Source: Patescibacteria group bacterium (GTDB taxonomy: Bacteria; Patescibacteriota; Patescibacteriia; UBA10025; JAHIVO01). Taken from it: 64,000 nucleotides of DNA. The DNA lies in contig JBAZWB010000002.1 of NCBI GenBank assembly GCA_041660605.1, forward strand, positions 66,216-130,215, given 5' to 3'. The translations under genes and the position numbers were made by a program. Positions 3,380 through 20,592 of this stretch are shown piece by piece. Under the pieces are notes generated by a model that worked only from the letters and a program-made list of their open reading frames with translations, searched no databases and was not told where the DNA came from. The number at the start of each line of letters is the position of its first letter. The stretch's first letter is position 1.

Positions 3380-4294
3380 CTATGAGCTAAACTTAAACCT
3401 AATAAATAAATCCGCGAAATATTTAAAATTATTCGCTATCTGTTCAACCGCCTGTTCGCGGGTAATCTTCTCTGATTTGAAATCCACCAGTGCCTGCCAA
3501 AAAACCGTCCTGCCGACCGCAAAACCGATGACCCCGTCCACCCTGGCGCCGGTCTCAATCCATTTTTCTACCAGCTCGCGGGTCTCGCCGCGTCCCAACA
3601 CGATCATGCAGACCTGCCCGCGCCGCCCCTTGCGCATCTGCTTGATGACGTCCTGGTAATTTTCCATTTCCTGAAATCCCTCAATTTTCCAGACATCCGG
3701 ATCCACTCCGCCTTTTTGCAATTCTTTGACCATTTTTATTGCCAGGTCCGGACGCATTTCCAGATTGTACCGGCGATGGTCGGCCTGCACTTTGTTCAGC
3801 TGGTCCACAGTCGGAGGCACCAGAACTTCTAGCATGAATTTATAACCGTGAGTGCGGCAATAATCGCTTAACTTTGCTAATCGCTGGCGCTGTCGTTCGT
3901 TTAATTCCTCATCTCCGCCGGGATTGTAGCGTAGTAAAGCTTTGGCAAACTGCGGCCGGTATTTATCCAGGTGTTCGCCGAATTGGTGGTTAAATTCAAA
4001 ATCAAATTCAGCCTGCCCGCTTTTTTCCGTGCACATGCAGACAATAAAACCAGCCTGTCTGGCTTGGCGCAAAATCAAATCACCGCACTGCTCGTCCACC
4101 AGTATGGCCGCGGATTCTTTCGGCACCCCGCGGCTGACGGCCAGAGCAAAACCTTCGTAGATTATCTGCTTGTATTCCGCCAGCTTGGCCACGCGTTCAA
4201 TGGTAAACAAATCCTCCCAGCCGAACATCTTTTCAGCAAAGCTTTGGCGGTGGTCAAATGGCAATATGTATAATGGTTTGTTATATCCGAGCAT
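3380..4294 (-). CDS. Aldolase-like TIM-barrel protein (DUF2090 / 5-keto-2-deoxy-phosphogluconate aldolase-like), putative
   Basis: 304 aa; N-terminal LYILPFDHRQSF resembles the DUF2090/IolC-C-terminal-type aldolase family; family call from memory only. Confidence 0.4.
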   Translation of the reverse strand: MLGYNKPLYILPFDHRQSFAEKMFGWEDLFTIERVAKLAEYKQIIYEGFALAVSRGVPKESAAILVDEQCGDLILRQARQAGFIVCMCTEKSGQAEFDFEFNHQFGEHLDKYRPQFAKALLRYNPGGDEELNERQRQRLAKLSDYCRTHGYKFMLEVLVPPTVDQLNKVQADHRRYNLEMRPDLAIKMVKELQKGGVDPDVWKIEGFQEMENYQDVIKQMRKGRRGQVCMIVLGRGETRELVEKWIETGARVDGVIGFAVGRTVFWQALVDFKSEKITREQAVEQIANNFKYFADLFIRFKFSS

Positions 4295-4367
4295 TTTTTA
4301 TGGATTAACTTGTGTGTTTATTATAGATTAAGAGGAGATATTTTCATAATTTAATATTATAATTGCC

Positions 4368-4943
4368 CTAAAATATCTCTATTAACGATTGTCTTACCAA
4401 AGTTCTGATTTGCTCATCCGAAAATTTTATTTGGCTATTCAGCTCCTTGGCTGTTGGCGAAAGCCTATTGTACATAAATTGGATTTTTTGCTTGGCTTTT
4501 TCCTCGCCATTTCTTTTCAGGTAAAAAGGAATATTATACTCAAAAAACGCCAGGCTATCAGCGTTCATTAAAACATTAATTTCTTCGCCGCCGCCGATTT
4601 CGTGATTTTCAATAAGATATCGGGTTTTATCAATAATTTTTTCTTCAAAATGGCATTCGCTCATTAACTCAGAAATGATCTTTGCAGAAACAAATGAATG
4701 TTGTTTCTTGTACTCATTGTAATCCTTAAAATCTTCTTTTTTTACTCTTCTTTCCGGAAAGCTCCTGTCAATATCATGCCCAAGAGCAGCCACCTGAAGC
4801 GCAATGTCAGCATTTGTCTTTAATTTCAAAACGTTTTTCCAGGTCAACTGCGAATGGACGTAATCTTCTTCTGCAACAGATTTCTTGGTTAGTTCTTCTA
4901 TCTTCTTCTTTACGATTTCAAATTTATCGTTTAAATATACCAT
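4368..4943 (-). CDS. HD-domain protein (putative metal-dependent phosphohydrolase)
   Basis: About 190 aa from internal Met (MVYLNDKF...), which abuts the Fic stop; H...HD motif (AALGHDIDR); the longest ORF would overlap Fic by about 40 nt. Confidence 0.5.
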   Translation of the reverse strand: MVYLNDKFEIVKKKIEELTKKSVAEEDYVHSQLTWKNVLKLKTNADIALQVAALGHDIDRSFPERRVKKEDFKDYNEYKKQHSFVSAKIISELMSECHFEEKIIDKTRYLIENHEIGGGEEINVLMNADSLAFFEYNIPFYLKRNGEEKAKQKIQFMYNRLSPTAKELNSQIKFSDEQIRTLVRQSLIEIF

Positions 4944-4944
4944 A

Positions 4945-6003
4945 TTATTTGTTGGGAATATAAATAGTTGCTTTACCTTTGCCAACCGATTTAATCATTC
5001 TAATTTTTTTCAGTCGCTGTAAATGCAATTGCGCCGTGCGCCGGGGGCAGTTTAACACCTCTTCCGCGTCCTTAACGGTCATACGGCTGACCTGATCCAA
5101 AAAATCAATAATTTTAAGCTGTTCAGGGCTTAAATATATTTGGGACTTAACCCTCGTACCTTTGGAACGCGCTGCCAAAGACAATATCCTTCCCTTAACG
5201 CGGTCAATTTCGTCTTTAAATCCGGTTATAAAATAATCCAGCCACGGCGTGCAGTCCTTTTGCCGTTCATCATAATTTTTACCCTGATTAATGGCTTTAT
5301 AATATGCCGGCCGGTCTGTATTATAATAATCTTCCAGAGCAAATAATCGGCGGAAGTCATACCCCCGCTGATACAAAATCAAGGTGGCCAGCGCTCTAGC
5401 CGTACGGCCATTGCCGTCTGTAAACGGATGTATCGCGGCAATTTCCAGATGCGCCACTGCCGCGACGATCACCGGATTAATCTGTTTTTTTTCGCTGTCT
5501 CTGAGCCAAGCCACAAAATTATTCATCAATTGTGGCACGCGCTTGGCTTCCGGGCCGGTGTACATTATTTGCGCCGGCAGACCGAGACGCCGTCGTACTA
5601 CGTAAATCGGCCCCGGGCGGTAGTGCCCGCTGGATCGCGGAGCCAGCGTATTGCTGGTAACCAGGTTATGAATTTTAAGTATAACTTTTTCACTTATCAA
5701 CTGGCGCTGCGCCACGACTTTTTCGATGTATTCCAGTGCTTTCAGATAATTTTTTACCTCATAAATATCGCGAGCCGGCGCGTCTATCTTCCTATGAGCA
5801 TAGAGCGCCTCTACTTGGGCGATGTCCAAACGGTTGCCTTCAATTTCCGTGGAATGGTGCGTCATGCGAATGACGGCCTGGCGGCGTAAACGCAATTCCT
5901 GCTGGGGCAATATCCGGGCATGCTCAATTACGGCTTTGGCTTCCGCAATAGCCGTCAAATCGCGCAAAATATTGTCGGATAAAGTATAGACGGGTTTAAA
6001 CAT
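4945..6003 (-). CDS. Fic/Doc family AMP-transferase-like protein with N-terminal inhibitory motif and C-terminal winged-helix domain
   Basis: 352 aa; canonical Fic motif HPFTDGNGRTARAL; SxxxEG inhibitory motif (STEIEG); basic C-terminal wHTH-like tail. Confidence 0.85.
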   Translation of the reverse strand: MFKPVYTLSDNILRDLTAIAEAKAVIEHARILPQQELRLRRQAVIRMTHHSTEIEGNRLDIAQVEALYAHRKIDAPARDIYEVKNYLKALEYIEKVVAQRQLISEKVILKIHNLVTSNTLAPRSSGHYRPGPIYVVRRRLGLPAQIMYTGPEAKRVPQLMNNFVAWLRDSEKKQINPVIVAAVAHLEIAAIHPFTDGNGRTARALATLILYQRGYDFRRLFALEDYYNTDRPAYYKAINQGKNYDERQKDCTPWLDYFITGFKDEIDRVKGRILSLAARSKGTRVKSQIYLSPEQLKIIDFLDQVSRMTVKDAEEVLNCPRRTAQLHLQRLKKIRMIKSVGKGKATIYIPNK

Positions 6004-6048
6004 ATATATTGGATGCTTTCTGTATGCAGTATATCATATAATCCCGAA

Positions 6049-6078
6049 TCGCGCAAGATACGCGCAACAATCGCGCAA
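6049..6078 (-). promoter_or_regulatory. Three direct repeats TTGCGCGA (minus-strand reading) spaced exactly 11 bp, immediately upstream of a TATATGAT -10-like box of the Fic-HD operon; putative operator
   Basis: aatcgcgcaagatacgcgcaacaatcgcgcaatatt; period 6049/6060/6071. Confidence 0.4.
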
Positions 6079-6104
6079 TATTATTTAAGTCAAAAATAAA
6101 AATT

Positions 6105-6167
6105 CTCGGCAAAGCTTTGGCGGTGGTCAAATGGCAGAATGTATAATGGCTTGTTATATCCGAGCAT
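6105..6167 (-). pseudogene. Duplicated 5' fragment (first 21 codons) of the aldolase-like gene at 3380..4294
   Basis: Translates MLGYNKPLYILPFDHRQSFAE then diverges to a stop; about 94% identical to 4231..4294; all 4 differences are synonymous. Confidence 0.6.
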
Positions 6168-6234
6168 TTTTATATTTAGTACTTACGCTGGTTATTATAT
6201 CAGATTTAAATATTTAACTATGCCTACAATTTGA

Positions 6235-6498
6235 TTACTTGCTATTCCTTCTTTTAAGATGATAAGAGATTTTGGTTAATAACTCCGAACCAAATCCAAT
6301 CAATGTTCCCACAACTGCAATTTTTCCAATTAAAGACCATTTAAATCCATTTCCAATCAAAAAAACAATAACCGCAACTATTAATCCAATAATAGCACCG
6401 ATTGAAAAACCTCCCCAAACTGCATTTTTCGTTTTAAAATATTTAATTAATAACAAGATTGAAATTACTGCGAGGATAATCCAAATAGTGTTCATCAT
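6235..6498 (-). CDS. Small membrane protein (two predicted TM helices), hypothetical
   Basis: 87 aa, strongly hydrophobic; lies in the more AT-rich block. Confidence 0.4.
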   Translation of the reverse strand: MMNTIWIILAVISILLLIKYFKTKNAVWGGFSIGAIIGLIVAVIVFLIGNGFKWSLIGKIAVVGTLIGFGSELLTKISYHLKRRNSK

Positions 6499-6515
6499 AA
6501 AAATTTAATTAATTT

Positions 6516-6713
6516 TTAGTTGATGTCTCCAAAATATTTTTTTCGTGCCTCATACCAATTTTTTTCTGCGTAGTTAAGTTCTTCGGATGCTTTTATTTCT
6601 TCCTTCGTCAACCATTCCTTGTTATTATTGAGAAATGGCATATAATTTTTTATTGCCTCCTTTAAGAAATTGACTGCCCGTTTATACTCCAATTCAAACT
6701 TAGTATTTAACAT
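6516..6713 (-). CDS. Hypothetical small protein
   Basis: 65 aa, charged/helical; no similarity recognised. Confidence 0.3.
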   Translation of the reverse strand: MLNTKFELEYKRAVNFLKEAIKNYMPFLNNNKEWLTKEEIKASEELNYAEKNWYEARKKYFGDIN

Positions 6714-6749
6714 ATACGATATACTTATTTAATATCCGTGAGCACTGTC

Positions 6750-6947
6750 TTATAGTTTATAAGTTACGATATCTGCGCAAACATTACTTAAGTTAAGATT
6801 TTTTTCTGTAATATTAATTAAGCAATCAGCTCTCTTTGATTCGGCATCAATTTCATTTTTATCTCGGAAGTATATATTTAAAGAAAAAACTAAAAATAAA
6901 CCTAATGCCAGTACTATTAACTGCCAAATGATGATTTCTTTTTTCAT
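6750..6947 (-). CDS. Hypothetical small protein with N-terminal TM/signal segment
   Basis: 65 aa; MKKEIIIWQLIVLALGLFLVF hydrophobic N-terminus. Confidence 0.3.
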   Translation of the reverse strand: MKKEIIIWQLIVLALGLFLVFSLNIYFRDKNEIDAESKRADCLINITEKNLNLSNVCADIVTYKL

Positions 6948-7024
6948 AAATTTTAATGGGAATTAACTAATGGGTAATGATATTACTTTACCGATATTCT
7001 CAATTTTATTGTGCTTCATATTGT

Positions 7025-7462
7025 TTAATTAAATTTATATTCATTAGGTAAATTTTTTTTAAATATTTTTGTTAATACAATAAAATCCAATAGGATGTCA
7101 ATATCCCATGACTTTTCCGGAGGTATACCACTAATTCTTTTATCTGTTAAATGCATAAGTTCATTGTCGATACGTTTCTGCAACTTTATTATCCGTGCTG
7201 TTTTTTTGGGTAGTAATTTTTCCCATTGTTTTGATTCAATAAAATCAATAGCCCTTATATATGATTTTCCATTCTTACGATAATAAAAAAATTCTAATAA
7301 ATTTCTTGCATGCAGTAGAAAACACTCCAATGCCATCTGAAGACTTTTTTGTTCTTGTTGTTTGAGACATTCAAATATTTTATTAAAAGAAAAATTGAGC
7401 ATATCGTCTTCATATGCGAAGTGTTCAATAAGCCATGCTTTTTTATCTGAATTCTGTAACAT
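7025..7462 (-). CDS. Hypothetical protein
   Basis: 145 aa; AT-rich codon usage differs from neighbours; no motif recognised. Confidence 0.35.
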   Translation of the reverse strand: MLQNSDKKAWLIEHFAYEDDMLNFSFNKIFECLKQQEQKSLQMALECFLLHARNLLEFFYYRKNGKSYIRAIDFIESKQWEKLLPKKTARIIKLQKRIDNELMHLTDKRISGIPPEKSWDIDILLDFIVLTKIFKKNLPNEYKFN

Positions 7463-7532
7463 TTTTATTTTATTAAAGTATGAAAAGTTTTAATAATAGT
7501 ATTTTTTGATATCCCCTCATAATCCAACAACC

Positions 7533-8069
7533 CTACTTACCTTTCTCAAATATTGAAGCAAAACGGGCTTCACTAATGATTTTCATCACCTCTTCAGGCG
7601 AAAAAACTTTTCCATTTATAGCAACGTAAATGCCAGGCTTAAGATGTTCAAGCTGCGCTACGGCATACCCCAGATTAAATGGCCCATCTGAGGGTGAAAA
7701 ACCGCTAATTGGAACGGCAGATGCCGTCAGAACTATTGTCTGATCATTTCGTTTAAGATTTGCTTTCAGGAAACGGGCAGTATCAGGCATGGTGTATGTG
7801 CCATGGGTAACAATTATTTCAGTATGCGCACTATTTTCAATGATTTTTAGAATATTATCTAAATCTTCGCGTTTCAAATCACGGCTGTCTTTCATGCAAA
7901 CGGTTGTAAACTCAGCGCCATGATAAATCTTTAAACCATTAATAAAAGATGGGATTACCGAAATTTCATTTGGGACAGCCGTGTCTTTGCTGGCATCATA
8001 ATGAGAATCAATTGTCCCGCCGGTAATTATAAAATGGATTGTGCTTTTTTGTTTGCTCATATTATTCAA
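7533..8069 (-). CDS. L-asparaginase N-terminal-domain-like protein (asparaginase/glutaminase family, stand-alone short form)
   Basis: 178 aa; IITGGTIDS threonine-nucleophile motif and THGTYTMPDTA block. Confidence 0.6.
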   Translation of the reverse strand: MNNMSKQKSTIHFIITGGTIDSHYDASKDTAVPNEISVIPSFINGLKIYHGAEFTTVCMKDSRDLKREDLDNILKIIENSAHTEIIVTHGTYTMPDTARFLKANLKRNDQTIVLTASAVPISGFSPSDGPFNLGYAVAQLEHLKPGIYVAINGKVFSPEEVMKIISEARFASIFEKGK

Positions 8070-8072
8070 TAT

Positions 8073-20515: not shown

Positions 20516-20592
20516 TGGTCGGGGTAGTGGGACTTGAACCCACGGCCTCATGCACCCCATGCATGCGCGCTAGCCAACTGCGCCATACCCCG
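20516..20592 (-). tRNA. tRNA-Pro (anticodon GGG) with encoded CCA
   Basis: Manual fold: acceptor CGGGGTA/TACCCCG, D-arm GCGC-AGTTGGCTA-GCGC, anticodon arm CATGC-ATGGGGT-GCATG, T-arm GTGGG-TTCAAGT-CCCAC, discriminator A, CCA. Confidence 0.8.

Follow-up and report, generated by a model that had tools for sequence, protein, structure and literature searches.

A candidate autoregulatory operator of three phased direct repeats at the promoter of a Fic winged-helix gene in Patescibacteria

Gene content of the locus

[quoted passage not shown] The genes and coding features of the locus are as follows:

4945..6003, minus strand: Fic gene, 352 aa (Pfam Fic, E=5e-19; PADLOC SoFic, E=7e-58)
4957..5139, minus strand: predicted winged helix-turn-helix coding region, residues 289-349
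5008-5043, minus strand: recognition helix, residues 321-332, RRTAQLHLQRLK, containing RRTAQLHLQ
4368..4943, minus strand: DUF4202/HD gene, starting 1 nt past the Fic stop (Pfam DUF4202, E=9e-21)
4230..4298, minus strand: intact 5' end of the DUF2090 gene (gene 3380-4294), second copy of a 69-nt repeat
6103..6171, minus strand: pseudo-copy of the DUF2090 5' end (MLGYNKPLYILPFDHRQSFAE...), 69-nt direct repeat at the upstream cassette boundary

The Fic catalytic motif HxFx(D/E)GNGRxxR is present as H192-PFTDGNGRTA-R203 and is invariant in 41 homologues. The inhibitory motif (S/T)xxxE(G/N), also invariant, lies N-terminal to it in the same chain (S51-T-E-I-E55-G56-N57). Judged by its sequence, the window protein is a class II, SoFic-like Fic. 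The PADLOC SoFic model covers residues 16-349 (profile positions 29-350 of 361, E=7e-58), and the score against the NCBIfam SoFic equivalog NF046030 is 77 bits, far under the cut-off of 550; the protein is therefore a distant member of the SoFic family and no orthologue. Relatives in the PDB are 8UQU, 4RGL, SoFic itself (3EQX, residues 144-349, wHTH included) and CccR (7XUX, Fic core only), and the alignments with SoFic and 8UQU run through the C-terminal domain.

In the AlphaFold2 model the C-terminal 60 residues or so fold into helices 293-306, 310-317 and 321-332 and strands 338-340 and 347-349, at low confidence (pLDDT 39-72); the mean pLDDT of the whole model is 66, and residues 335-352 fall below 50. 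Pfam HTH_20 matches the C-terminus at 18.4 bits, under its cut-off of 27. No Pfam match to Response_reg or Trans_reg_C was found in the Fic protein or its neighbours.

When the C-terminal domain was searched in isolation (residues 295-345), a weak match to the Z-alpha domain of PKZ appeared (E=0.2), aligning TAQLHLQ with TVNRHLY. The hallmarks of Z-alpha, which we take to be conserved Asn, Arg and Tyr residues in helix 3 and a PPxW wing, are absent, and with a match this weak Z-alpha identity was rejected.

Structure of the triple repeat and its promoter

Read on the minus strand, the heptamer TTGCGCG starts at positions 6078, 6067 and 6056, with a period of exactly 11 bp. The layout up to the start codon is AATA-TTGCGCGATTG-TTGCGCGTATC-TTGCGCGATTC-GGGATTATATGATATACTGCATACAGAAAGCATCCAATATAT-ATG, with the following features:

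6068..6078, minus strand: repeat 1 (TTGCGCGATTG), about -57; first of three 11-bp units, which are present in 70 of 78 loci
6057..6067, minus strand: repeat 2 (TTGCGCGTATC), about -46; core of 1.6-1.9 bits across 76 loci
6046..6056, minus strand: repeat 3 (TTGCGCGATTC), TTGCGC at -35; core of 1.6-2.0 bits, with 2.0 at 6 of 7 positions
6028..6036, minus strand: extended -10, TGaTATACT, aligning with the TGnTATAAT/TATACT boxes of other loci
5960..5967, minus strand: fourth TTGCGCGA, within the Fic reading frame at codons 13-15 (L13-R14-D15, in ILRDL)

The first-pass annotation had described three identical octamers 11 bp apart. The period stands; the identity does not, as the octamers read TTGCGCGA, TTGCGCGT and TTGCGCGA in order, the middle one ending in T. 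With A, T and A as the eighth base, the common unit is a heptamer. All three units share one orientation, and no inverted copy was found downstream of them. A search of the window for TTGCGCG-N4-TTGCGCG-N4-TTGCGCG with up to 2 mismatches returned this single match, and the same triple gave 0.00 matches in 100 dinucleotide-preserving shuffles of the window. The lone heptamer is not enriched (12 found, 14 expected). Its occurrence at the chance rate across the window indicates that the triple is a local cluster; since the tandem form is also unique in the window, membership of a dispersed repeat family was rejected.

In the TGCGCG core (window 6050-6078), as in its TGCGTG variant, pyrimidines and purines take turns along the strand, which favours Z-DNA.

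The -10 hexamer, placed by comparison with the 78 loci described below, is TATACT (6033-6028), and the preceding TG lies at 6036-6035. An earlier proposal had put a -10-like box 6 bp past the repeats; the sequence meant, TATATGAT, begins 8 nt after the third octamer, and the comparison points instead to TGaTATACT (6036-6028) as the working -10. From the TTGCGC of repeat 3 (6056-6051) to the -10 there are 17 bp, and this spacing places repeat 3 in the -35 position. Because TTGCGC matches TTGACA at only 3 of 6 bases, a consensus promoter scan missed the promoter of the window. Counted from the conserved extended -10, the repeats reach from about -35 to about -67 and so lie in the promoter of the gene itself. 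Being upstream of the -10, they lie outside the transcript made from this promoter.

Few of the other 78 loci carry an TTGCGCGA within the reading frame, so the fourth, in-frame copy of the window is most likely, as far as this comparison goes, a by-product of coding. In one locus (L017:229-262), repeat 3 is fused straight to the in-frame TTGCGCGA at codon 13, which removes the -10, the start codon and the first 12 codons; this reflects either a deletion between two copies of the repeat or a faulty assembly.

Conservation of the repeats across Patescibacteria

A scan of species-representative genomes yielded 80 loci with Fic proteins 59-74% identical to that of the window (family A), of which the 78 having upstream sequence were used for the operator counts. 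Most come from Patescibacteria (Magasanik-, Uhr-, Moran-, Falkow-, Kuenen-, Buchanan-, Doudna-, Peregrini- and Gracilibacteria), and a few lie in bins with labels from outside Patescibacteria, e.g. Elusimicrobia.

Copies of [T/C/A/G]TGCG[C/T]G number three in 70 of the 78 loci and two in another 6, in the same geometry, so that TTGCGCG-type repeats occupy the Fic promoter in the window genome and in about 75 other candidate-phyla genomes. The units are spaced by 11 bp 133 times and by 12 bp 17 times. The last TTGCGC stands exactly 17 bp before the -10 hexamer in 64 of 78 loci; the hexamer itself is TATAAT 33 times and TATACT 14 times, and a TG precedes it in 40 of 78. The cores of repeats 2 and 3, like the -10, reach about 2 bits of information, against about 0 bits directly upstream of repeat 1. 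The repeat cores are thus conserved while spacers and flanks vary among loci, and the arrangement is retained across lineages as distant as Peregrinibacteria, Gracilibacteria, Magasanikbacteria and Elusimicrobia-labelled bins.

The protein is conserved in parallel. In 77 orthologues of family A the wHTH is near-invariant, reading QLKIIDFLDQ..RI.VKDV.DIL.CP(K/R)RTAQLHLQKLKKIKMIK..GKG..T.Y, and its most invariant part, P-x-R-T-A-Q, parallels the invariant core of the DNA repeat. A search within family A for covariation of the TTGCGTG variants (L068, L075, L078) and the spacer types with helix or wing residues gave no consistent signal.

These patterns bear on the simplest alternative, that the repeats arose by chance or slippage, or act at the RNA level, without binding a protein. 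Short TTGCGCG-N4 arrays do arise in unrelated phage contigs; the pattern, however, appeared in 0 of 100 shuffles, and the cores stay constant amid variable spacers and flanks. An RNA element was ruled out by the position upstream of the -10, the lack of an Rfam match at the site and a fold z-score of +0.5. As a whole, this alternative is scarcely credible. The only Rfam match in the window is a tRNA (20519-20592, minus strand).

The phage contigs just mentioned are 17 viral contigs of IMG/VR (L245-L261) with exact TTGCGCG-N4 arrays of at least 3 units and differing spacers. One array (L247) has at least 9 units, in two contigs (L250 and L253) about 200 bp separates inverted arrays, and the array of L258/L261 closely precedes terminase-like reading frames assigned by eye. 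None of the 17 contigs encodes a Fic relative, and the arrays look like unrelated iterons. A phage link was rejected: the array-bearing contigs lack a Fic relative and have other spacers, and viral Fic relatives are at most 37% identical.

The first-pass annotation suggested searching for further triplets. The window holds one, and the 664 kb formed by the window and the loci hold, beyond the copies upstream of Fic genes, only three extra ones. The first (L031:941-965) is a degenerate duplicate 265 bp upstream of the real operator and has no Fic gene of its own. The second (L047:5060-5095) is an orphan just past a Fic stop, with no Fic gene behind it. The third (L075:980-1559) is an operator copy before a 178-aa GNAT-like reading frame 3 kb from the Fic gene; it has the same TTGCGTG variant as the Fic operator of that genome, and AbiEi/AbiEii-like reading frames follow, all of these assignments being by eye. 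Fic may regulate this GNAT-like gene as a second target.

Directly upstream of repeat 1, a subset of loci has a hairpin (GGCCAGCGG...CCGCTGGCC) followed by TTCTTCATTTT:

L030:3860-3925, L032:1040-1105 and L034:1215-1282: upstream hairpin (weaker in L004 and L027)

By its sequence this hairpin and T-tract looks like an insulating terminator that may travel with the module. A divergent 'MKKASGT' reading frame near the Fic gene was considered and rejected, being a non-coding hairpin-plus-T-tract element present in few loci.

Neighbouring genes and the cassette

DUF4202 is probably co-transcribed with Fic in the window genome. The 'Fic-HD operon' of the first-pass annotation is no conserved unit, as DUF4202 lies near Fic in only one other locus of 80, on the opposite strand. 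DUF2090 was never found near the Fic gene in the other loci. An all-against-all comparison of reading frames within 1.5 kb revealed none shared by more than 9 of 79 loci, the commonest being a second Fic family (family B, below), and a conserved small partner gene or antitoxin within 1.5 kb was accordingly rejected. With no neighbour in common, Fic alone among the genes consistently accompanies the repeats, and the operon belongs to the window genome only.

The two 69-nt copies of the DUF2090 5' end are 93% identical, with all five differences synonymous, and the upstream copy lies 24 nt from repeat 1. These flanking repeats define Fic-DUF4202 as a 1,873-bp cassette bracketed by the start of its target gene, and the sequence looks as if the pair had gone into the beginning of DUF2090. 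Of the two copies, the upstream one amounts to a truncated pseudo-start (MLGYNKPLYILPFDHRQSFAENFYF*). In a syntenic relative (L163/L164), transketolase is directly followed by DUF2090, and the window has about 4.2 kb extra (4300-8070); as the closest DUF2090 homologue is only 58% identical, this comparison with an empty site is one of synteny only. The extra DNA holds the pseudo 5' end of DUF2090, Fic and DUF4202, together with a 178-aa reading frame consisting of an asparaginase N-terminal domain only (7533-8069) and four small reading frames without Pfam matches (6235-7462) in a block of 26-29% GC. The gap between transketolase and DUF2090 looks like an insertion hot spot in a pentose-phosphate gene cluster.

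A Logan contig from a second sample (SRR18595301; L002:1-30) has an identical Fic-DUF4202-DUF2090 arrangement and begins inside repeat 1, which may mean that in that sample the DNA preceding the operator is different or variable.

Another explanation is that the repeats are the terminal recombinase or transposase site of a mobile cassette, with an incidental position at the promoter. The flanking direct repeats, the 4.2-kb insertion relative to the syntenic locus, a Fic context that differs in nearly every genome and the contig break inside repeat 1 would all suit a mobile end. A recombination site, however, has no need of the fixed distance to the -10; no recombinase is encoded in the cassette or conserved nearby, no TTGCGCG copy was found at the 3' boundary of the cassette or the 3' end of the gene, and the flanking duplication begins 24 nt upstream of the repeats instead of at them. 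We regard this explanation as very improbable.

Related families of Fic proteins

Family B was first found adjoining family A, of which it is a neighbour in 9 of 79 loci:

L026:2589-3647, L027:2453-3547 and L078:710-1771: family-B genes beside family A

Its Fic shares 25% identity with the window protein (E=3e-28), and the wHTH aligns without gaps. In a set of 80 metagenomic loci (L083-L162), the family-B promoter was seen to have two 10-bp direct repeats that span the -10 and an inverted copy 7 bp downstream. Residue x of the family-B helix motif RPT[VI]xQ aligns with Q325 of the window protein and predicts bases 4-7 of the repeat:

x = K: bases 4-7 TGG[AC], in 21 of 21
x = N: bases 4-7 CTTA, in 20 of 25
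x = R: bases 4-7 C[TC]G[ACT], in 8 of 8
x = S or A: bases 4-7 CT[AC]A, in most

The placement of Lys or Arg opposite G in this code is chemically sensible. In a neighbour-joining tree built from the part of the protein outside the wHTH, the residue-x classes are interspersed, K occurring in at least 3 places, S in three and R in two or three, and family-B proteins with K and with N are in pairs up to 84% identical yet have different operators. This interspersion and these close pairs imply that helix and operator have switched together several times. The co-switching of residue and bases in turn suggests that Fic proteins read the repeats of their own promoters, and family A would be expected, by homology, to bind its repeats in the manner of family B.

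Phased repeats also occur with more distant relatives. Upstream of the paralogue L056p, CGTCTA appears three times as 11-bp-phased direct repeats. In two IMG/VR contigs (L166/L167:500-600) that encode a Fic-wHTH protein about 33% identical, A[TA]CGGCAAT recurs as direct repeats with spacings of 11 and 22 bp shortly before the start codon.

The family-B code also bears on another explanation, in which a host-encoded regulator, or a feature of candidate-phyla sigma factors, uses the repeats and Fic is one member of a regulon. The second operator of L075, before the GNAT-like gene 3 kb from Fic, and the orphan copies in L031 and L047 are what a regulon might leave. The L075 copy, however, shares the TTGCGTG variant of its genome, which fits Fic acting in trans, and the tandem motif is nearly absent from the rest of the 64-kb window and from about 600 kb of flanks. 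Moreover, the module keeps its operator across distant lineages with no conserved neighbouring gene, and the family-B operator bases track the helix of Fic itself. A host regulator or sigma-factor feature is accordingly very improbable.

Comparison with known systems

The closest functional precedent is CccR of Yersinia pseudotuberculosis (YPK_0951, PDB 7XUX), whose HTH half binds and represses its own promoter, as demonstrated by lacZ fusion, EMSA and footprint; the deletion mutant shows 3.3-fold derepression, and the operator consists of two 10-bp inverted repeats 26 bp apart (AGATAATCAT-N26-ATGATAATCT), bound by a back-to-back dimer (PMC9755527). CccR and the window protein are both class II Fic proteins in which the inhibitory helix is N-terminal and the HTH C-terminal, so that toxin and transcription factor are one polypeptide. 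The two differ in their operators, an inverted repeat in CccR and three direct repeats of 11-bp period overlapping the -35 in the window. Their similarity is limited to the Fic core (residues 50-269, E=4e-11), and CccR is a T6SS effector, whereas the window locus has no secretion context. Phased direct repeats had earlier been offered as a precedent for Fic autorepression; that support falls away, the sole footprinted Fic operator, that of CccR, being an inverted repeat.

For SoFic (Shewanella oneidensis SO_4266), specific co-elution with the 100 bp directly preceding its own gene is reported (bioRxiv 10.64898/2026.07.09.737422). The window protein matches the SoFic profile over nearly its full length, wHTH included. 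SoFic differs in its longer N-terminal dimerisation helix and in having no defined binding sequence, and the window protein is not its orthologue. In CbFic2 of Coxiella burnetii, DNA binding that is apparently sequence-independent activates the AMPylation of histone H3 (PMC10628234). CbFic2 shares the architecture of Fic plus C-terminal wHTH, and its DNA binding is coupled to the enzyme; the difference lies in binding that is apparently independent of sequence, without a known operator.

Two further systems resemble the locus in one aspect each. The Phd-Doc locus, one of the autoregulated type II toxin-antitoxin systems, encodes a toxin of the Fic/Doc fold under negative feedback, which is exerted by a separate antitoxin on palindromic operators. 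In the window, by contrast, the toxin chain itself includes the inhibitory helix and the DNA-binding domain, and direct repeats take the place of palindromes. In Pho boxes, winged-helix domains are arranged head-to-tail on 7-bp cores with 4-bp spacers, giving an 11-bp period, and the proximal unit replaces the -35. The OmpR/PhoB-type regulators are response regulators with receiver domains and are usually activators; the window Fic has no receiver domain, and its wHTH is of the SoFic/ArsR-like type.

A model of autoregulation

Taken together, the three 11-bp-phased units are likely to be an autoregulatory, probably repressive, operator that is read by the winged helix of Fic itself. This had been proposed in the first-pass annotation and gains support from the conservation in 76 of 78 loci, the unconserved flanks, the co-switching in family B and the precedents of CccR and SoFic. 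According to this model, the TTGCGCG(A)WTN units would form the operator of the Fic gene's own promoter, and the recognition helix (R322-T-A-Q325...) would contact them in the major groove. Three wHTH domains would line up head-to-tail along a single face of the helix, covering about -35 to -67. The proximal unit being the -35 hexamer, its occupancy would exclude sigma region 4 and RNA polymerase, and the resulting negative feedback would keep a potentially toxic AMP-transferase at a low, constant level. With repeat 3 as the -35 and a near-consensus, often extended -10, occupancy should indeed block RNA polymerase. Both the stoichiometry of three domains and the repressive effect are points that we infer. 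Considering the symmetric dimers of the SoFic type and the inverted repeat of CccR, a head-to-tail arrangement on three direct repeats would need a flexible linker or another oligomer.

The main competitor accepts that Fic binds the repeats and assigns the binding another role, either activation, as at PhoB-like class II boxes, or a scaffold on which Fic oligomerises and its AMPylation or de-AMPylation activity is switched. The array has the 7-bp cores, 4-bp spacers, 11-bp period and last unit at -35 of a Pho box, and TTGCGC, with 3 of 6 bases of TTGACA, is a poor -35, which boxes of this kind would replace. This geometry fits PhoB-type activator boxes as well, so that repression is only the more probable sign of regulation. 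For the scaffold, it may be noted that DNA stimulates the activity of CbFic2 through dimerisation (PMC10628234). Against activation, most of the -10s are consensus or extended (TATAAT 33 times, TG in 40 of 78) and ought to be active unaided; CccR, the Fic-HTH protein with a documented role, represses its promoter, which is derepressed 3.3-fold in the deletion mutant; and a toxin gene under positive feedback would be a danger to the cell. Activation or scaffolding is thus rather unlikely, though the likeliest of the alternatives.

Within the autoregulatory operator model, a more speculative extension, drawn by analogy with CbFic2 and in our estimation doubtful, is that the phased sites hold an inactive Fic oligomer on the promoter, with DNA binding coupled to enzyme activity; release would then derepress the gene and unleash AMPylation at once. 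Release might be triggered by DNA damage that a phage causes, by altered supercoiling or by a B-to-Z transition of the TGCGCG cores. If this were true, a 1.2-kb gene and operator would together make up an entire sense-and-kill module, able to move horizontally among candidate-phyla bacteria with their tiny genomes.

Conclusions

That a Fic toxin with a DNA-binding tail controls its own promoter is a kind of regulation already known. What appears to be new here, judged against the searchable literature, is the use, in this family, of three 11-bp-phased direct repeats that double as the -35 and replace the split palindrome. No paper was found in the literature on the TTGCGCG motif or its architecture, or on Fic proteins in Patescibacteria.

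Fic-wHTH proteins are widespread, with about 1,800 InterPro entries, and include the SoFic anti-phage system (bioRxiv 10.64898/2026.07.09.737422). Among them only the CccR operator has been footprinted, and the current work adds a sharply defined and highly conserved candidate operator. Family B adds a natural specificity code in which one helix residue is paired with operator bases. A 45-bp probe and swaps of single residues now suffice for a direct test of DNA recognition by Fic-wHTH proteins.

The finding describes a module that unites toxin and probable regulator and has spread to many Patescibacteria; the transcriptional regulation of these organisms is almost wholly uncharacterised. Its main value lies in providing a clean model for DNA recognition of the SoFic type and one of the few recognisable regulatory circuits of Patescibacteria.
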